From a virus: 64,000 nucleotides of DNA. Shown in pieces: positions 48,240 to 61,914 of this stretch (the first letter of the stretch is position 1; the number at the start of each line of letters is the position of its first letter). Both the position numbers and the translations under genes were made by a program. The notes under the pieces were generated by a model that had not been told where the DNA came from, did not search any database, and worked only from the letters and a program-made list of their open reading frames with translations. The stretch is taken from the IMG/VR virus record IMGVR_UViG_3300029121_000001; one strand, given 5' to 3'.

Positions 48240-48298
48240 ATCTTACTCCTCCTTACATTAAAAGTATTATTCTAAAGTTCGATTTATACAAAAGAAGC

Positions 48299-48323
48299 GG
48301 GGAAGACTATTACAGCCTTCCCC
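48299..48323 (-). terminator. hairpin after 48334..48837
   Basis: GGGGAAG/CTTCCCC stem. Confidence 0.55.
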
Positions 48324-48333
48324 AATTCTTTAT

Positions 48334-48837
48334 TTATTTTAACCACTCAGGGCAAGGATTTAATGCCTTGATACCACCATGAGCGGGAATGAACGTATTC
48401 AGACGTTCACCATTTTCAGACTTAATAGGAATTTCAGTAGTACGGTCTTCAATGTTCTTCCACATTAGTTCAATGTTAGAAGTCTTTCGACCACCAAGAG
48501 GAAGTTTTCTACCAGTCTGAAGATAAGTTCCAGTAAACTCCTTAGACATATTTACCATAGCAGCGGCATCTGCACGGGTAAATTCATAAGCATTAACTAG
48601 TTCTGTTGCTTCCTTTACAGGAATATGAGTGGTAGCAGCTACTACATTGCTAACCACTTTACGAAGTTCACGAGAAGGATAGTATTCATCAACCTTACCA
48701 CCCTTAGCATAAACATCAACAGAATAGTTTGTATCATTCATCATTGCTTGCATGACAGTGATCTCATCTTTTTTAGAAGAAGAACATTGAGTAACACCAT
48801 CTCTGACTTCTTTGATAATCTCATATGCACTTGTCAT
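48334..48837 (-). CDS. hypothetical protein
   Basis: 167-aa ORF with GC-richer codons; weak RBS. Confidence 0.75.
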   Translation of the reverse strand: MTSAYEIIKEVRDGVTQCSSSKKDEITVMQAMMNDTNYSVDVYAKGGKVDEYYPSRELRKVVSNVVAATTHIPVKEATELVNAYEFTRADAAAMVNMSKEFTGTYLQTGRKLPLGGRKTSNIELMWKNIEDRTTEIPIKSENGERLNTFIPAHGGIKALNPCPEWLK

Positions 48838-48939
48838 AATCGGTCATCTCTCTTTCTTTTTAATTTTATAGAATTCTTCTTATACTCCAAGATTCAAGAC
48901 TCGAACTTGATAAATGTCCAATACAATCTTAGTTAGGGA

Positions 48940-49740
48940 GATATGAGTTTGCTAGTGGACCGTAGCCCACAAATAACCCTCAGAAACCCATATCAGAAAA
49001 CCGCATCTTAATTTCGGAAATATAGAAGGATGCTTTATCTATACCCCTAGAAGGTCAACTGTCTTTTTCTCATACCTACAGCTCATCTGGATCGATGGTT
49101 TCCTACACGAAATCAAAGTCCTTAAATTTCGGATAATGTGCTAGATGATTTACACAAAACCTACTATTGTTCTTTATATCGTGGCCAGCTCAATAAACTT
49201 ACGGGTGAAGTTTTGCATAAACTAAACGCGCAAGTAGCCTTCCTTAGAACAATCAAGAGTATCTAATGCATATCAATATTCGGCAAACTACCTAAACCAT
49301 AGCTGGTATGGAGTTATTCGTACCAAATATTATTATTCCCCGCCTCGGTAGATACTTTCAAGACTTGACACGCTTTCCCGGTGCCCTTTATGTGGGGCAT
49401 ATAGTAGACCACTATAATTAATAGCCTAAAAAGTTGATCAGACTATCTAGAAAATTAATTAAAGTTTTTATGGCGATACGCGTATCTATTCAATTACGAA
49501 TCCCAATTTGGGATCCTAATAATTGTCACTACGGTCCCCCAGATCCATCTATATGCGTATAAGCGTTAGGATAAAGGTAGTAGACATTATCCCTGCAGAA
49601 TCTTACTGCACCATCATTAGATGTAATCTAATGAATCGAACCTCGCTTTGTAAACCTAAGAAGAAAGAAAAACTTAGATTTACACTTCTTTTGAGCTGTC
49701 CGTCCCTCGATACACAAAAGAAAAAATAGGAATTAAATAC
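48940..49740. ncRNA. candidate large structured non-coding RNA (about 800 nt ORF-free, GC-elevated region next to the tRNAs); strand unresolved
   Basis: No credible ORF in six frames in otherwise gene-dense DNA. Composition is clearly richer in G+C than the flanks (similar to the verified intron). Local helices such as ggatcccaa/ttgggattc. Adjacent to two tRNA genes. Confidence 0.35.
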
Positions 49741-49762
49741 AAGCCGAATATTTAATTCCTAA

Positions 49763-49839
49763 TGGTGGGCCATGTAGGACTCGAACCTACGACCATCCGG
49801 TTATGAGCCAGAAGCTCTGACCAACTAAGCTAATAGCCC
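49763..49839 (-). tRNA. tRNA-Met: tRNA with CAU anticodon (Met, or Ile2 if lysidine-modified), encoded CCA
   Basis: GGGCTATTAGCTTAGTTGGTCAGAGCTTCTGGCTCATAACCGGATGGTCGTAGGTTCGAGTCCTACATGGCCCACCA folds as a cloverleaf with GGTTCGAGTCC T-arm. Confidence 0.9.
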
Positions 49840-49871
49840 TTATAAGTAGAATTAGGGGAGATAATTCTACA

Positions 49872-49954
49872 TGGTGCAGGAAAAGGGACTTGAACCCTCA
49901 CTCCGAAGAACTAGATCCTAAGTCTAGCGTGTCTGCCATTCCACCATTCCTGCA
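49872..49954 (-). tRNA. tRNA-Leu: tRNA-Leu (UAG anticodon), class II with long variable arm, encoded CCA
   Basis: TGCAGGAATGGTGGAATGGCAGACACGCTAGACTTAGGATCTAGTTCTTCGGAGTGAGGGTTCAAGTCCCTTTTCCTGCACCA; anticodon loop CTTAGGA. Confidence 0.88.
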
Positions 49955-49974
49955 AATATAAAAGAGCTAATAAC

Positions 49975-50142
49975 TTAATTAGTCTGATTCGAATCCGTAC
50001 TATTATGTATGTCTTGTAAAGTTTGATCATCTAAAAATGTAATAGCATTTACATTTTTAATCTTGCCTTTAGAAGAAATAAAGTGATTAATTTCTTCAGG
50101 TGTAGATGAACAAAGAATTTTATAAAAATCAGATTTGTCCAT
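49975..50142 (-). CDS. small hypothetical protein (55 aa)
   Basis: MDKSDFYKILCSSTPEEINHFISSKGKIKNVNAITFLDDQTLQDIHNSTDSNQTN; AGGAGG RBS 8 nt upstream. Below the ORF-track length cutoff. Confidence 0.6.
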   Translation of the reverse strand: MDKSDFYKILCSSTPEEINHFISSKGKIKNVNAITFLDDQTLQDIHNSTDSNQTN

Positions 50143-52587: not shown

Positions 52588-53129
52588 CCTAAATCGGACA
52601 CTTTAGGAAAGTTAAAATTGAAATAAGCGAATCTTATGTCATTCATGTACCCTTACACATGAAATATTTAAAATTGCTTAAAACTGCATATTTTAACTTT
52701 TCTTTTAATTTAGCGATCATATCTTTATCCAGTAAAGATTCTGCAATTCTTTATTTATCTGGATATATATCGTTTCGATTTAAATGGATTTATCTGCTGC
52801 CTCAGTACCATACCTATATAATATAGGCTCTACATAATGATCTGTGGGCACACTCATTTCTGAGCTTCGCTGCTGGTTGTCAATTTTATACTATAATAGT
52901 ATTGATCTTTAAGGAACTTAATTTTCATTAAGCTTTTATTGCATCCTAGATCATCCTGTAAATTCTTTCTGACTTTCGTCGGCTTTCACGCTTACCATTG
53001 CTAGTTACGTTGTAGCTTTACAGGCATTATGGTTTTCCAGCAATTAGATATATTAGCGACTCTAAATTACTTTAGAGAAGGGACTTCTGTGGTGATATTA
53101 TATATTATAAATAGCACCACTGCTATTTA
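52588..53129 (-). ncRNA. group I self-splicing intron (542 nt, no ORF)
   Basis: Splits AAD/FDGD. 5' exon ends in U (GAT); the intron ends in G (…GATTTAGG). CCCACAGATCATTATG and AAAGATATGATCGC resemble the conserved R and S elements and can pair as P7 (GATCAT/ATGATC). GC-elevated, no ORF. Confidence 0.75.
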
Positions 53130-54554
53130 ATCCGCAGCCAAAAATTTCAAGATCTGCAGAGGAACTGCTAGAGTATAGGTATTAGTAATTCCAACACAGA
53201 ACATTTGCAGAATAGAGCCATAAGCAAGTGTAGGATTTCGGCCAATTATTACCGGTAATCCACGCATACCTTTATGCTTAAAATCATCAATGATAGATTG
53301 AATAATCGTATTGATCTTTTTATTAGGCTCAATAGTAGCTTTATACCAGATATCATGAGCTTCTGTTGGAGTCATACCATGCATACGGCAAAGAATATTT
53401 TTAATTCTCTGCTCAAGCATAACAGTCAGAGCAACTGCAGGCATTGTAATTTCATCAATACGAAGATTGGGATTTTGAACGATAACACAACGAGAAGAGA
53501 AGTTATACCGTCCACCGAGAAGACATCTAAAATCACCTTTCTTACCAGCAAGGATATTAATTTGCTCTGAATAAATATCCATAAACTTCTTCTGGAGATT
53601 ATAAAGCTGCTGATTCTTGATCTTAGGTTCTCTCTGAATAGCAGTCTTATTCTTGTTGATAGAAGTTGCTAGTTTATTGATCATGGCATACATTGCATTT
53701 GTAGGCTCATATGTCATGTTATTTCCATCGATATCAAAAGGACGAAGTAGAGTAGTAATAACAGGAAGAGACGATGAGAATACAGACTCTCTAGCTTCAT
53801 AAATAGCATCATAATAACTCTTCTTATTAGGATACTTTTTAATATAATAATCCATAATCTCATCGAATCTTTCAGTGAATTCTATCATACCAATTCCAAA
53901 GAAAGGTTCATCCTTAAGCTTAGGATCATCTCTAGACATCGTATTGAGAACAAGTTGAGTATCTGTGACATCAAGAATATTCTCAAGCTTAGTACGCTTA
54001 TTACCTTGAATATAGATGCCCTTACCAAGAATAGATTCAATATAGATATAGAATGTAGGATGAATAAACTTATATGGTTTAGATAATTTAATCCAACCAC
54101 AATACTTGAAGTTATCATCTACATATGTGCACAAGTGCCCACATTGAGGACAGCGAAGACCATAATTAATACGTCCTCTAAGTCCTCCTTCTTTACATCT
54201 ACAACGATACCTATCCATAAAAGGATTAGTATCAGCAAGAGTCTGTCCAAACTTTGGAGAGAAGATACCATCTTCTGCACGAAGATCTTTCTTGATGTTA
54301 CGTCCTGCAGGTTCTACAATAAAGCCATTGCCTTCACGAAGATCATCTTCACAAGCTTTATCATAATTAATGATCTCAAGCTTACCAGAGAATTCATATT
54401 TATCAGAATGAGGATAAGTTTTACTGGTAGACATAAGATCATTAAGATGAGGCTTAAGGAAATTAAATTCCTGTTGATGCTTCATCTGATATTCGATATT
54501 GTAATCGTGGAGTTGTTTATAGTTGCTAGTGTCAACATTATATTTCGTTTCCAT
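53130..54554 (-). CDS. RNA polymerase beta-prime-like subunit, exon 1
   Basis: Zn-binding CRCKEGGLRGRINYGLRCPQCG; LLGGRYNFSSRCVIV; ends ...LKFLAAD. AAGGAGG RBS. Confidence 0.85.
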
Positions 54555-54677: not shown

Positions 54678-55241
54678 TTAAGAATTATCTGTAAATTTAT
54701 TCAGTTTCATTATAGTATTATAATCAGGATCATCTAATCTAGGCTGTTTAGAATCGTCTTTTAGCAGGTATACTTTTCCTTTAAACGGTTTATATTTAAT
54801 ACCAACAGCATCAAGCATTCTAGTAGCTTCTCTAAAATCTGCTGTATCAGGATATTTATTAATGCTATAATAAATATTCTTTACTCCTACTTGAATAAGA
54901 GCCTTAGTGCAATTATGACAAGGAAACATGGTTACATAAAGAGTAGATCCTCTAAAAGCAGAAAGATCTCCACGGAAGTTGAGAATAGCATTTTCTTCTG
55001 CATGTACTACATAAGGATATTTAGTATCTTCTTCATTTTCTGCTTCCCTTGCCCAAGGAAATTCATCATCAGAAATTCCATTAGGAAATCCATTATAACC
55101 AATGCTAAGGATACGATCATTAGAAGATACAAATACTGCACCAACTTGAGAATTAGGATCTTTAGATCGCATTGCTGCCATTCGAGCAATGCCCATATAC
55201 ATATCTTCTTTAGAGATATAATTAGTGCGTTTATCTGACAT
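54678..55241 (-). CDS. dCMP deaminase
   Basis: VVHAEENAI and PCHNCTKALIQVGVKNIYY zinc-binding motifs; AAGGAGG RBS. Confidence 0.9.
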   Translation of the reverse strand: MSDKRTNYISKEDMYMGIARMAAMRSKDPNSQVGAVFVSSNDRILSIGYNGFPNGISDDEFPWAREAENEEDTKYPYVVHAEENAILNFRGDLSAFRGSTLYVTMFPCHNCTKALIQVGVKNIYYSINKYPDTADFREATRMLDAVGIKYKPFKGKVYLLKDDSKQPRLDDPDYNTIMKLNKFTDNS

Positions 55242-57787: not shown

Positions 57788-58762
57788 TTAAAAGTAAATA
57801 TCTCTATTAAAAGCCTCTTTAAAACTCGCTTTAACTTTACTGCTATTCACATTACAATAAATCATAGTAGTCTCTAATTTGGCATGCCCGAGAACTTCTT
57901 TAATCTGTTCTACAGGCATTCCTCTATCCATTAGATGAGTTGCACAAGTTCTACGGAATCGGTGAGGATGTACATTCTCTACTCCAGCTCTATCACCAAT
58001 ATCCTTAAGAATTAATTCTGCACCTCTTGGAGTCAATCTATGGCCATTTGAAAGATGTGTGAATAAAGGTTGATCCGGTTGAGCATAACGTTCTTCTAAA
58101 TATTCTTGTAAGTATTTCATACAATTATTACTTAGATAAACAACTCTCTCCTTATGACCTTTACCAAATACTATAACTTCGCCTTCATTGAAGTTGATAT
58201 CTTTTACATTAAGACTAATAACTTCAGCAAGTCTAGTTCCAGTAGAATATAGAAATTCAACAAATGCTTTATCTCTTTTATTAGTACATTCTGCTCTAAG
58301 AGCATCCATCTCAACATTAGAGAAAGCTTTCTTGATTTTCTTTTCACACAATACTCTTTCAATTTTATTAGTAGGATTTTTCTCAATGAATTCTTCATTT
58401 ACAAGAAATTCATAAAAAGAGCTAATAGCTCTAATCTTAGTCTGTAATGTAGCAGCTTGAAGATTTCTTGCTTTAACCATATAGGCAAGATAATCCTTCA
58501 TATCTGCAGTAGTAATGTCTAAATAACTCTTTCCATTATAGTACTTAGCCATTGCTCTAACTTCTGTTACATATCCGGTCAAAGAAGATGGTTTTAGTCC
58601 TACTAAACTTTTCTGTTGTATGAAGCGTTCTATCAACTCTTCATTTGGTAGAGCGGTTCTAGATGTTCTTAGAATTGTATCCAGAACGTTTTTCAATTTA
58701 GCTAGTTGAATTTCATTTAATTCTGGTCCCATCAATTTTAGGATCATCTCTATATTAGTCAT
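57788..58762 (-). CDS. tyrosine site-specific recombinase (XerC/XerD / phage integrase family)
   Basis: N-terminal SAM-like domain. Catalytic signature GTRLAE...HPHRFRRTCATHL...LGHAKLETTMIY. The ATG at 58762 (MTNIEM) follows GGAG. Confidence 0.9.
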   Translation of the reverse strand: MTNIEMILKLMGPELNEIQLAKLKNVLDTILRTSRTALPNEELIERFIQQKSLVGLKPSSLTGYVTEVRAMAKYYNGKSYLDITTADMKDYLAYMVKARNLQAATLQTKIRAISSFYEFLVNEEFIEKNPTNKIERVLCEKKIKKAFSNVEMDALRAECTNKRDKAFVEFLYSTGTRLAEVISLNVKDINFNEGEVIVFGKGHKERVVYLSNNCMKYLQEYLEERYAQPDQPLFTHLSNGHRLTPRGAELILKDIGDRAGVENVHPHRFRRTCATHLMDRGMPVEQIKEVLGHAKLETTMIYCNVNSSKVKASFKEAFNRDIYF

Positions 58763-58810
58763 CGCTATATCTCCAATCACAATTAATGTACATTAAGGAG
58801 GACTTTTCAA

Positions 58811-59541: not shown

Positions 59542-61914
59542 TCAAACGATAGAAGCTCTAATTACAACATCAGTTTTATTCTGTGTTACCTTAATACCCT
59601 TGCTTACAGAACTCATCATCTGGATCTGAGAAATCGGCAAACTTATATTGGATCCTGTGGTAATAATATTAAGTGTATTATTATCAGAAGCTCCAAAGAT
59701 AGTTTTAATTCTATCTCCTCTTCCAAGATCAATAACTCTACTACCAGCTTTATTTCTTTGACTTCTCTCAAAACCAGCAACGGAGAATTTATTAATCTTA
59801 CCAGACTCTGTCAATACAATAACGTATTTGGTTGGATTCTTATGGTCAGTATAAATAATACTCATACCTTCCATAGGCCCATGTTGACCTCCCATACCAA
59901 GTGTGCCAATTGTATTTCTCTTAAGCAATGCGATATCAGTAGAAGCAATTCGCAATGCTTTAGAATCGCTATACAGAATCAGATCCATATTGTCAGATAC
60001 AAGTTGAGTATCAACAATGTCATCATCCTGATTAATCTTAGAATAGATAATACCAGAAGGAGGAACATTGATGAAATCCTGAATATCAAGTTTCTTGATA
60101 GTATTATTTTTAGACAAGATTGCTACATATACTTTCTGCTTTAAAGCCGCAAGTTTAGTAACCATAGGCTCATAAATTACAGAAATAATATCTGCAGTAA
60201 GTCCTTTAATAACACCCTTAACATCGATACCAGGCTCATTCTTAGCCATAATGGGAATTCTGTGAATCGGAAGCTTGAATACTCTACCCTTATTATCAAA
60301 GAGAAGTATATTCTCCAGATTACTTACTGTCAATACAAACTTAGGCCGATCTCCCTTAACCACATTTACATTCTCATTCTCACCAATCTTACGGATATAG
60401 TTATTCTCAGTGATAATGATCTTGAATGTACCTTCAGGGATATTGCCCAGATTACTAACCTTAATAACCTTACAGATTCTAGGGGTAGCATACTTATTGC
60501 GAAGCATGATCAATTCATTTTTGACATCTTCCTTAATAAGTTTATCATTAGCGATTCTTCCTTCAAGCCAAGATTCTTCTTTACTTAGCTTATTAAACTC
60601 CTCCTTATATTTATCAAGATATCCTCTAGACAACTGTTTGATCTGAGCATTGATAATATAAGATGCCTGAATATCAGTCAATCTATATTTACTAATCAAA
60701 AGCTCAATCAATTCATTATCAGAACTAGTCTTTCCTTTCTTAATAAGATTAATAATCTTATCAATATCAGGAGATCCTACAATCTTGATAAATGCGTCAA
60801 GTTTATGAAGCTTTGTAGATACTACATAATGTCTTGCAGAGTATTCCTTGATCTTATTATCAGTAGCAAATTTGATAAACAATTCAAGATAGGCTTTATA
60901 AGACAATCTTACAAGCTCAGTACCATAAACTGCTTCAAAATTAACTCTGAAAGATTGTTCACAAGGAGTGTACTTATACAAAGCTTCTTTAACAAAGTTT
61001 ACATCAGTACCCTTCTTTAACTTGATTACGATTCGTACACCATAGTCATTCTTAGACTCATCATTAACATCAATAATCTGAGGGAATTTACCAGCGGCAA
61101 TTCCTTCATCGATCTTGTTGACTACATTGTTGGTACCATACATCGGAAGAGAAGTAATTGTGATATAAGGATAATCATTCTTATCATGAGATACACTCAT
61201 AGTTGCTCTTGCACGATAAGATCCATAGCCTTTATTACAGATATTCTTCCAATCTGTATCGATGATATCGCAAGGAAGACAATGATCAGGAATTAGAACT
61301 ACTTCTGCGTTTGGATCATCAATCAATCTCAGAGTTGCATCGATAACTTCTCCCATATTATGAGAAGGAAGATCTGCTTTAATGCCAGTACCAATACCAC
61401 CAAGAATACCATTGATCAGAAGAAGTGGAACTTTAACAGGAAGATATTGAGGCTCCATATGCTTGTTATCATATGTGGGATTCCAATCAACGACTTCATT
61501 GTTATAATACAATGCTCCACATACACATTCGAGTCCAAAAGGACTTAAACAGCATTCGGTATATCTTTGTGCAGATGCTACTTCACCAGATACAGTACCA
61601 AAAGAGCCTTGCCCAATCATCATCGGTTGCTTAATTTCAAACCAGTTTACCATGGTTTTAAATGTAGGATAGGTACCACTATGAGGATGATATTTCTTCA
61701 TAACAGTACCTTCTACGGCAGCAGATTTAACCTGAGTAGCAGGACTTACTGCTTTTTCATCATTCATTAGAGTATACAGAATACGTCTTGCAACAGGCTT
61801 CAATCCATCTCGAACATCAGGCAATGCACGAACTAGGTTCGTAGCAATAGTGTATAGAGCAAGATCTTCGATATATTGTTTATGAGCTGTATTTTGACGA
61901 ATTACTTCGGCCAT
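59542..61914 (-). CDS. type II DNA topoisomerase, A (breakage-reunion) subunit
   Basis: PDVRDGLKPVARRILY, KYHPHSG, active-site AQRYTECCL; 790 aa. Confidence 0.9.
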   Translation of the reverse strand: MAEVIRQNTAHKQYIEDLALYTIATNLVRALPDVRDGLKPVARRILYTLMNDEKAVSPATQVKSAAVEGTVMKKYHPHSGTYPTFKTMVNWFEIKQPMMIGQGSFGTVSGEVASAQRYTECCLSPFGLECVCGALYYNNEVVDWNPTYDNKHMEPQYLPVKVPLLLINGILGGIGTGIKADLPSHNMGEVIDATLRLIDDPNAEVVLIPDHCLPCDIIDTDWKNICNKGYGSYRARATMSVSHDKNDYPYITITSLPMYGTNNVVNKIDEGIAAGKFPQIIDVNDESKNDYGVRIVIKLKKGTDVNFVKEALYKYTPCEQSFRVNFEAVYGTELVRLSYKAYLELFIKFATDNKIKEYSARHYVVSTKLHKLDAFIKIVGSPDIDKIINLIKKGKTSSDNELIELLISKYRLTDIQASYIINAQIKQLSRGYLDKYKEEFNKLSKEESWLEGRIANDKLIKEDVKNELIMLRNKYATPRICKVIKVSNLGNIPEGTFKIIITENNYIRKIGENENVNVVKGDRPKFVLTVSNLENILLFDNKGRVFKLPIHRIPIMAKNEPGIDVKGVIKGLTADIISVIYEPMVTKLAALKQKVYVAILSKNNTIKKLDIQDFINVPPSGIIYSKINQDDDIVDTQLVSDNMDLILYSDSKALRIASTDIALLKRNTIGTLGMGGQHGPMEGMSIIYTDHKNPTKYVIVLTESGKINKFSVAGFERSQRNKAGSRVIDLGRGDRIKTIFGASDNNTLNIITTGSNISLPISQIQMMSSVSKGIKVTQNKTDVVIRASIV

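Follow-up and report, generated by a model that had tools for sequence, protein, structure and literature searches.

A conserved structured RNA of about 800 nucleotides, with a RAGATH-36-like 5' core, beside tRNA genes in human-gut jumbo phages

The 64,000-nucleotide stretch of viral DNA analysed here (IMG/VR record IMGVR_UViG_3300029121_000001; the window) comes from a human-gut jumbo phage. Its minus strand has a gap of 925 nucleotides (nt), at 48838-49762, between a tRNA-Met gene and an open reading frame (ORF) of 167 amino acids (aa). We find that the minus strand of this gap encodes a non-coding RNA that is conserved and structured. The description that suits it best is that of a new and much enlarged RAGATH-36-type RNA, and it would belong functionally with the tRNA-associated giant phage RNAs. 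An initial annotation, made from the letters of the window, had singled out an ORF-free stretch bounded by tRNA-Met on one side and by the region upstream of the 167-aa gene (48334-48837) on the other, and had proposed a large structured RNA of the GOLLD or ROOL type. What it observed was largely right except for the G+C content. Its general interpretation also stands, on 24 homologues, compensatory pairs, an asymmetry between the strands and no coding signal; the specific family guesses were wrong.

Compensatory change among related phages, which the initial annotation had named as a check, carries the case for RNA structure. A consensus fold obtained with RNAalifold from 4 sequences contained 209 base pairs, 47 of them with double compensatory changes, and 97.8% of cells were paired. 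Sliding the 3' partners by 1-3 columns as a control left 3-6 compensatory pairs and 40-45% pairing. The same structure imposed on 13 sequences, 9 of which had not been used in its derivation, was 89.4% paired and had 52 covarying pairs, against 9-11 in the slid controls. Column-shuffled alignments yielded 20.7 ± 3.1 (4 sequences) and 19.3 ± 3.3 (13 sequences) compensatory pairs, compared with 47 and 51 observed, and fold energies of -53 ± 5 and -61 ± 5 kcal/mol, compared with -148 and -158 kcal/mol. When the clade of the window (7 sequences) and the other clades (17 sequences; the two sets are about 61% identical) were folded separately, about 16 helices recurred at equivalent positions. The clearest single case of covarying structure is the long-range helix P6, by which a 400-nt domain is closed; 24/24 sequences keep it intact, in the versions GGGGA/UCCCU, GGGAG/CUCCU and GGGAA/UUCCU. 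Helix H18 (GCCGA/CUGGC) of the first fold was rejected: it is broken in one clade and overlaps the better-supported P7.

The antisense strand folded less well (-104 and -120 kcal/mol, with 33 and 36 compensatory pairs, versus -148 and -158 kcal/mol, with 47 and 51), and G-U cells outnumbered A-C cells by 283 to 99. The poorer fold of the reverse complement and the excess of G-U over A-C together place the RNA sense on the minus strand, as for the tRNAs. ORFs within the gap do not exceed 68 aa and none is conserved among the relatives, including the one at 49523-49729, which the initial annotation had already set aside. Substitutions relative to three relatives fell evenly on the three codon positions (31/29/31, 117/109/119 and 114/111/110), with no 3-nt periodicity; the adjacent 167-aa gene showed a strong third-position bias (P = 6e-4 to 5e-12). 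Given this evenness and the lack of a conserved ORF, the stretch is non-coding and not a decayed protein gene, one of the alternatives raised at the outset. The G+C content, estimated by eye at 40-47% against about 30% in the flanks, had been overstated: 48940-49740 is 37.6% G+C, compared with a window mean of 32.7% (s.d. 3.6 in 800-nt windows; 91st percentile). The neighbouring genes on the left are similar to the gap (38.1% and 36.3%), and low G+C is confined to the right flank (26.6%).

Full-length homologues of the gap number 24 distinct sequences of 915-968 nt, 61-99% identical, which fall into about five sub-clades and lie on related human-gut phage contigs of 190-270 kb. They came from three IMG/VR contigs (190-271 kb) reached via the 167-aa protein, from contigs in ENA, JGI and Logan (one of them a 267,825-bp contig of a Hadza gut sample), and from a single pattern scan of metagenome contigs, which added 15 further full-length copies (11 new distinct). 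The gene order of a 55-aa ORF, tRNA-Leu, tRNA-Met, the gap, the 167-aa gene and a giant tail gene was identical wherever the upstream sequence sufficed. Between the window and locus L002, the gap has diverged faster than its neighbour gene (62% versus 85% DNA identity), and its alignments consist of conserved blocks interspersed with completely different ones; the last 95 nt before the ATG of the 167-aa gene are almost invariant across relatives. The region had no blastn match among 50,697 GenBank phage records, a 16-nt pattern (GAAAGTATCTACCGAG) gave 9 extra IMG/VR loci that were all chance by nhmmer, and two more IMG/VR patterns retrieved only three already-known relatives.

More distant relatives of the locus were reached through the 167-aa protein. 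At L035-L038, whose 167-aa homologues have 65-68% protein identity (L035-L039 span 65-72%), neither the tRNAs nor the gap RNA is present; at L037 and L038 the 167-aa gene again lies directly ahead of a giant tail gene. The contig of L039 begins 106 nt before the gene and is uninformative on this point. One locus is intermediate. L034 (Logan SRR13434665; L034:550-1010; 167-aa protein 77% identical) has retained both tRNAs and the 55-aa gene, together with a leader hairpin and the 5' core; with the same flanks, it passes from AACGCUUAG to the region upstream of the 167-aa gene in about 50 nt. The roughly 665 nt that it thus lacks (49559 to ~48895) take in P3, P4, the 3' domain in full and the terminal hairpin. 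Because the RAGATH-36 layout, with its P3 and P4, runs into the stretch that L034 lacks, a deletion in L034 is likelier than an insertion in the clade of the window. As a natural deletion variant, L034 could serve for functional comparison.

The predicted layout, 5' to 3', would consist of two or three leader hairpins (Ha, Hb, Hc), a 90-nt core whose three hairpins surround a junction flanked by AAGCGAGGUUCGA and AACGCUUA, P3 and P4, and an extension of 470 nt made up of P5, the 400-nt domain with its long-range closing helix, candidate pseudoknots and a terminal hairpin (Table 1). The hairpin terminator that the initial annotation saw after tRNA-Met is indeed present (Ha and its U-run, 49761-49727) and has compensatory changes: its 13 pairs are 100% paired in 13 sequences and 3 of them have double changes. 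Ha looks like a terminator or else like the 5' boundary hairpin of the RNA; being A/U-rich, it was missed by the terminator scan. In the clades other than that of the window, the Hb loop (GUAUAGAGGGU) has a perfect 12-nt complement (GACCCUCUAUAC) in the 3' domain, with which it is predicted to pair over a long range (RNA positions 55-69 and 738-753 in L002 and its relatives; columns 56-70 and 763-778 of alignment A4). One C-to-U change in the complement yields a G-U pair, and the clade of the window keeps only about 5 bp. This pairing, if real, would tie the leader hairpins to the body of the RNA.

Within the core, a proposed closing stem pairs AAGCG (49648-49644) with CGCUU (49565-49561), and GAGGUUCGAUU is conserved. 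The core hairpins are P0 (49634-49628/49620-49614), P1 (49610-49606/49598-49594, loop UAAGAUU) and P2 (49593-49585/49576-49568), followed by the linker AACGCUUA at 49567-49560. All three hairpins covary across phages, and AAGCG and CGCUU can close a four-way junction that holds them. The P3 domain, predicted independently in both clade sets, has an outer stem (49556-49542/49410-49397) that covaries (GCAUAUAG/CUAUAUGC, CCAUUUGA/UUAGAUGG and CCGUUU/AAACGG), a stem P3a (49541-49530/49484-49471), a variable hairpin P3b (49525-49491) and a long hairpin P3c (49465-49411) with the apical loop CUGAUCA (49441-49435).

In the extension, the P5 loop (49356-49349) is complementary over 8 bp to UAGAUACU at 49265-49258, a candidate pseudoknot picked independently in both clade-level folds, for which covariation is lacking because both partners are invariant. 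P6 encloses P7, the P8 arm, P9, P11 and P12. P7 takes the forms AUAAUGU/ACAUUAU, AUAAUG(U)GG/CCCAUUAU and AUAAUGAG/CUCAUUAU in other clades. The outer stem of the P8 arm is AUUGUUCU/AGAACAAU versus GUAAAUUCU/AGAAUUUAC, with G-C and G-U variants, and its inner stem has 6-7 double changes. A second candidate pseudoknot would join the P9 loop (UCAUCU, 49148-49143) to its complement AGAUGA at 49088-49083; the complementarity reaches 8 bp in some clades and shows no covariation. The inner hairpin of P12 is GUGGG/UCCAC versus GCUCG/CGAGC.

Table 1. Positions of the RNA elements, the second RAGATH-36-headed RNA and the neighbouring genes (window coordinates unless a locus is named).
Feature	Position	Strand	Description
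Hairpin Ha and U-rich run	49716..49761 (stem 49761-49748/49740-49727)	-	-14.1 kcal/mol, z -6.3; directly after tRNA-Met
Hairpin Hb	49685..49723	-	Conserved purine-rich loop (…GAGGG.GGA…); stem CUUUUG/CAAAAG vs CUUGUGU/ACACAAG between clades
Hairpin Hc	49649..49684	-	C/U-rich loop of 12-18 nt; stem GUAAAUCUAAG/CUUAGGUUUAC in window vs GAGAUUCAAG/CUUGAAUCUC elsewhere
RAGATH-36-type 5' core	49559..49648	-	Partial Rfam match and own model R1; minimum free energy (MFE) z -2.9
P3 domain	49397..49556	-	~160 nt, three branches; located where RAGATH-36 has a ~55-nt P3
P4 hairpin	49367..49385	-	GGCAC-CGGGAAAGC-GUGUC, then AAG; 4/6 pairs with double changes, 100% paired
P5 hairpin	49342..49364	-	Invariant 11-nt loop AAAGUAUCUAC; stem GUCUUG/CGAGGC, GUCUCG/CGAGAC, GUCUUG/CAAGAC
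3' domain	48935..49341	-	~400 nt, closed by P6 (GGGGA 49341-49337/UCCCU 48939-48935); P6 in 24/24
P7	49274..49332 (49332-49321/49285-49274)	-	AAUAUUUGG/CCGAAUAUU in window; small conserved branch inside
P8 arm	49166..49253	-	Outer stem 49253-49246/49173-49166; inner hairpin 49235-49197; apical loop AUGCA 49218-49214
P9 hairpin	49131..49161	-	Invariant loop AAAUCAUCUA; stem 100% paired, 3 double changes
P11 hairpin	49033-49029/49007-49003	-	GCAUC/GAUGC
P12 arm	48994-48981/48954-48940; inner hairpin 48970-48955	-	100% paired, 3 double changes (P11 and P12 together 48940..49033)
P13 terminal hairpin	48887..48932	-	CUAAGAUU/AAUCUUGG, nearly invariant; MFE -10.8 kcal/mol, z only -1.25
Second large RNA	L012:9367-10242(-), L020:66-945(-), L022:2400-3290(+), L023:11795-12667(+)		
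tRNA-Leu (anticodon UAG)	49872..49953	-	ARAGORN; Rfam tRNA 58.5 bits; first gene of small tRNA cluster upstream of RNA
tRNA-Met (anticodon CAU)	49763..49839	-	ARAGORN; Rfam tRNA 66.9 bits; directly upstream of RNA
167-aa gene	48334-48837; purine-rich ribosome-binding region 48858-48847	-	ORF; first gene downstream of RNA
Terminator-like hairpin, G+C-rich, and U-run	48298..48324	-	Terminator scan: 12 pairs, 6 G-C; between 167-aa and 3164-aa genes
Split RNA polymerase beta' fragment, dCMP deaminase, tyrosine recombinase, GyrA	53127-54554, 54678-55241, 57788-58780, 59542-61914	-	

Rfam 15 was searched with curated thresholds on the window, with E ≤ 10 and permissive filters on 48700-50000, and with E ≤ 1 on the whole window. 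At the gathering cut-off, the window contained only the two tRNAs. The families that the initial annotation had put forward, namely GOLLD (RF01998), ROOL (RF03087), group I introns (RF00028) and group II introns (RF00029 and the D1-D4 models), had no match in 48700-50000 even at E ≤ 10, nor anywhere in the window at E ≤ 1. Models of RNase P, tmRNA and riboswitches matched neither there nor, at E ≤ 1, in the window, and the other weak matches were chance. The only meaningful sub-threshold match was RAGATH-36 (RF03104), at 49613-49549 on the minus strand, with 29.6 bits against a gathering cut-off of 70 (E = 8.7e-4 over the 1.3 kb scanned and 0.043 over the entire window). This family had not been among the candidates of the initial annotation. 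The match follows the first two hairpins and the AACGCUUA linker nearly nucleotide by nucleotide and passes over the remaining model.

RAGATH-36 is a 128-nt candidate structured RNA of phages, and the RNA of the window is 6-7 times longer; both occur in phages, among or beside tRNA genes. The conserved unit exceeds the Rfam model, which begins at the UGG before P1. Its 5' part (AAGCGAGGUUCGA) and the variable, strongly covarying hairpin P0 are also found in canonical copies of RAGATH-36, which add (A/G)AGCGAGGUUCGA and P0 (L009, L014, L016, L021, L024 and others; 49648-49614 in the window). The AAGCG of this part can pair with CGCUU of the linker, a segment taken as single-stranded, to give a four-way junction, and one A-to-G variant keeps a G-U pair. 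Canonical copies also share sequence past the 3' end of the model (…GGAAAUGC…). We built a covariance model of the extended core (R1: AAGCGAGGUUCGA, P0, UGG, P1, P2 and UAACGCUUAG) from 17 cores, none of them from the clade that bears the large RNA. Its sole match in the 64 kb was at 49648-49559 on the minus strand, with 71.9 bits (E = 7.6e-17).

Feature by feature, the likeness to RAGATH-36 is closest at the 5' side. P1, which in the family has the loop GUAcGAUUC after UGG, reads UGGUGCAGUAAGAUUCUGCA at 49613-49594 and is conserved in the 24 homologues; P2 and the linker are present as GGGAUAA…UUAUCC and UAACGCUUA (49593-49560), and P2 covaries. Directly after the linker, at the place where P3 of RAGATH-36 begins, a stem also begins in the window (49556…/…49397). 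The conserved GA…GUGAGG…GAAA motifs of the family's P3 (GAaGgUAaGuGAGG … GAAA in its internal loops) are absent here, however, replaced by the 160-nt domain with its three-branch interior. P4 of the family (ggac-UaCGAAAGu-gucc, then aAG) was compared by eye with P4 of the window, which has a GGGAAAG-type 9-nt loop and is likewise followed by AAG; homology of the two is plausible, not proven. The first ~290 nt thus look like RAGATH-36 with P3 expanded three-fold, to which the remaining ~470 nt, without an Rfam match, are extra. On these sequence comparisons we regard the 5' core as homologous to RAGATH-36-type cores. A literature search returned nothing specific on RAGATH-36 or on a matching large phage RNA.

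The core is not confined to this lineage. A pattern built on it (GATTCNGNNGGG…CCTAACGCTTA) was found at 20 IMG/VR loci, every one in or beside phage tRNA arrays, and 7 of these carry canonical RAGATH-36 above the Rfam cut-off, amid RAGATH-4, RAGATH-16, twister-P1 and pistol elements. Dense clusters of such small RNAs lie among tRNAs at L016:4571-6732, L021:5521-5590 and L009:2922-3300, where some twister-P1 copies are below threshold. In unrelated phage contigs, RAGATH-36-type cores occur inside tRNA arrays and also before other genes. A scan of GTDB genomes with the core pattern gave 9 loci, none carrying the large domain; four of the nine (Gemmatimonadaceae, Geopsychrobacteraceae, Chitinophagaceae and Mycobacterium) were discarded as chance, having no P1 pairing. 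L060:4320-5440, on a 213-kb contig of a metagenome-assembled genome (MAG) labelled Herbinix sp., holds two core copies about 1 kb apart, one of them with a broken closing stem (CACCG for AAGCG); binning assigned this contig to a bacterial genome, and it probably represents a jumbo phage. The other genome matches, in Oscillospiraceae and Clostridiales MAGs, hint at Clostridia as hosts of core-bearing phages.

A second large RNA of this kind was encountered in other IMG/VR phage contigs (103-148 kb; sample 3300045988), where two tRNAs enclose an ORF-free RNA of about 870 nt (L012, L020, L022 and L023). Its 5' core is the same, a P3/P4-like region comes next, and a further structured stretch of about 650 nt then extends as far as the following tRNA, with 23 compensatory pairs; RAGATH-36 scores 46 bits on this RNA, below the cut-off, and no other Rfam family matches. 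Beyond the core, it has no detectable sequence similarity to the RNA of the window, from which it also differs in its higher G+C content, its UUCG-capped hairpins and the true tRNAs on both sides. RAGATH-36-type heads therefore carry at least two unrelated large bodies, that of the window and that of the L012 group.

To our knowledge, very few bacterial or phage RNAs longer than 500 nt have complex conserved folds: rRNA, RNase P, group I and group II introns, OLE, GOLLD, ROOL, HEARO and raiA. With GOLLD, the RNA described here shares its phage origin, a length above 800 nt, an ornate multi-domain build and a place beside tRNAs, a likeness of context that does not define a family; the GOLLD model, including its universally conserved 3' half, does not match, and the helices and conserved motifs differ. 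The GOLLD example studied by cryo-electron microscopy lies downstream of a tRNA-Met; GOLLD has a conserved and a variable part, and one of its palindromic loops makes a symmetric contact between chains (PMC12286853). Oligomerisation of the RNA of the window is, by comparison, only hinted at. ROOL, which measures several hundred nucleotides, occurs in phages and prophages, often near tRNA islands; it contains multiple pseudoknots, and no protein that partners it is known (PMC12286853). Its model does not match either, and the RNA of the window is longer and built differently.

The hint of oligomerisation comes from two apical loops. That of P3c is CUGAUCA in 23/24 sequences and CCGAUCA, with the GAUC core kept, in L052, on a stem that differs in every clade. 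The palindrome in the apical loop of P8 is UGCA in the clade of the window and GAUC in four other sub-clades, so that in the clade of the window the P3c and P8 loops cannot pair with each other and each can pair with itself. Palindrome switching is a signature that supports symmetric kissing loops in OLE and GOLLD (PMC12286853). The switch seen here is one evolutionary event, and we accordingly take the two loops as suggestive only of self-association.

The explanation that we moderately favour is that of an ornate RNA that stands alone and works through its fold, produced together with the tRNAs and cut free by tRNA-processing enzymes. The RNA would span about 800-875 nt of the minus strand, from ~49760 or 49648 to ~48887, and would be transcribed together with the tRNA cluster or by read-through from it. 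The enzymes that process the flanking tRNAs would release it as a stable molecule, which would act by its three-dimensional shape, as is thought for GOLLD and ROOL, and might associate with itself, possibly through the palindromic apical loops (CUGAUCA in P3c, UGCA or GAUC in P8). Its ends, processing, oligomerisation and role in infection we infer. A stand-alone rather than gene-specific RNA is suggested by the presence of the core in tRNA arrays and before other genes, by the position of the L012 type between tRNAs and by the lack of the large part in L034.

Several points weigh against this explanation or the structure beneath it. Hairpin Ha and its U-run could end the tRNA transcript ahead of the RNA, and no terminator lies between the RNA and the 167-aa gene, which leaves room for a leader. 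A promoter was not recognisable: a scan for sigma-70 sites gave fewer sites than shuffled sequence, although such scans are uninformative in a phage with its own multisubunit RNA polymerase. Independent covariation events are few, because a single phage lineage, divided into about five sub-clades, supplied every full-length homologue. MAFFT alignments rather than structure-guided ones underlie the predicted structure, helices H19, H22-23, H25 and H27 fail in some clades, and details vary between runs. The pseudoknots and palindromic loops rest on invariant sequence together with the one palindrome switch.

The main rival is gene-specific, and we consider it rather unlikely: the RNA would serve the mRNA of the tail module (the 167-aa gene) as a giant 5' leader acting in cis, and a pyrimidine-rich element in it (the Hc loop at 49672-49661, or an invariant UUUUCUG block near 49000) would pair with the purine-rich ribosome-binding site and control translation or mRNA stability. 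About 50 nt separate the end of the RNA from the start codon, and the strong terminator-like hairpin lies on the far side of the gene, so that RNA and 167-aa gene form a possible separate transcription unit. The ribosome-binding site of the gene is weak and non-GGAGG, unlike those of its neighbours, and the near-invariance of the last 95 nt up to the ATG would fit as well. RNAalifold does pair the C/U-rich Hc loop with the purine-rich ribosome-binding region (AAGAAAGAGAGA, 12 bp; CUUUUUCU with AGAAAGAG in other clades), but these pairings are of low complexity, invariant and without covariation. Moreover, the core and its extensions sit before tRNAs or unrelated genes in other phages, L034 and more distant relatives have the same gene context without the large RNA, and some 800 nt of ornate covarying structure go far beyond the needs of known translational leaders. 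RAGATH motifs are defined by their association with twister and hammerhead ribozymes, which lends some weight to an improbable further reading: a processing or catalytic element of the tRNA cluster, either a self-cleaving ribozyme or a tRNA-like substrate of RNase P or RNase Z, with the large domains as accessories. At loci that have the same core, tRNAs are interspersed with twister-P1, pistol, RAGATH-4 and RAGATH-16, and the junction and loop nucleotides of the core are highly conserved; the region matches no known ribozyme family in Rfam, however, and we know of no report of self-cleavage by RAGATH-36. As for a tRNA-like substrate, P13 contains UCAAG-UUCGAGU-CUUGA, a possible T-arm-like hairpin, and might be drawn as a 7-bp acceptor-like stem with a T-arm (loop UUCGAGU). 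This is speculation that the MFE fold disfavours, and the one-sided changes, among them an A-to-G change giving a G-U pair in 4/13 sequences, fit an alternative inner helix (UUGGAC/GUUCGA) equally well or better. About 600 nt of additional conserved structure would also be left unexplained.

Two other possibilities, raised in part by the initial annotation, appear very improbable to us. One is a mobile insertion, be it an ORF-less intron or another selfish element of RNA or DNA, that would have entered downstream of the core and ahead of the 167-aa gene; the lack of about 665 nt in L034 between unchanged flanks would be its trace. The missing part, however, begins with a stem and holds a hairpin at the P3 and P4 positions of RAGATH-36, so that a deletion in L034 is simpler, and no copies were found elsewhere in the window or in other contexts. 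Nor do the boundaries look like those of an intron, degenerate or otherwise: the 5' junction indicated by L034 follows A (group I introns need U), the boundaries lack the GUGYG…AY of group II, no domain-V-like hairpin was seen on reading the sequence, and no interrupted gene is apparent. The group I intron whose G+C shift had served as a yardstick was not found anywhere in the window at curated thresholds or at E ≤ 1, and the comparison with it is thus unsupported. The other possibility, equally remote, is a DNA-level element such as a replication origin, a packaging site or a cluster of promoters, with conservation acting on double-stranded DNA. In favour of one, the gap is long, non-coding and rich in inverted repeats, and both its strands fold better than shuffles (z about -3 each). 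Yet the compensatory changes keep pairing and not sequence, G-U pairs exceed A-C mismatches about 3:1, the sense fold beats the antisense fold, no GC-skew switch occurs at the gap, and the core belongs to an RNA family of Rfam that occurs within tRNA arrays.

The locus brings to light a well-delimited RNA of about 800 nt, carried by human-gut jumbo phages in 24 natural variants, and links it to the catalogued, uncharacterised RAGATH-36, a motif with an unrecognised conserved 5' part. It would be a new candidate for an RNA-only architecture and another case of tRNA genes paired with giant RNAs, and self-association through palindromic loops is a testable idea. More tentatively, and with some doubt on our part, the RNA might be the first example of a new class of giant RNAs in phages, with a RAGATH-36 head joined to an ornate body of 400-500 nt. 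It would fold without protein and, like ROOL and GOLLD, assemble into symmetric homo-oligomers, here by way of its palindromic apical loops. RAGATH-36-type cores would then be a common platform for unrelated large RNAs in different phages.

The genes around the RNA are all on the minus strand, in the transcription order 55-aa ORF, tRNA-Leu, tRNA-Met, gap, 167-aa ORF, terminator-like hairpin and a gene for a 3164-aa tail protein that carries lysozyme, CHAP and C39 peptidase domains. tRNA-Leu is kept in all relatives checked. The 167-aa protein has 141 homologues; it and the small ORFs had zero matches in Pfam, PHROGs and PDB. The 55-aa ORF (MDKSDFYKILCSSTPEEINHF…; 49975-50142, minus strand), directly upstream of the tRNAs, has a canonical GGAGG ribosome-binding site and is conserved in relatives with the tRNA-RNA cassette wherever the locus extends that far, without a family match. 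Further along the window lie genes for a split RNA polymerase beta' fragment, a dCMP deaminase, a tyrosine recombinase and GyrA. The split beta' subunit is distantly related to those of phiR1-37, AR9 and PBS1, with at most 31% identity, and the phage of the window is a jumbo phage that encodes its own multisubunit RNA polymerase.

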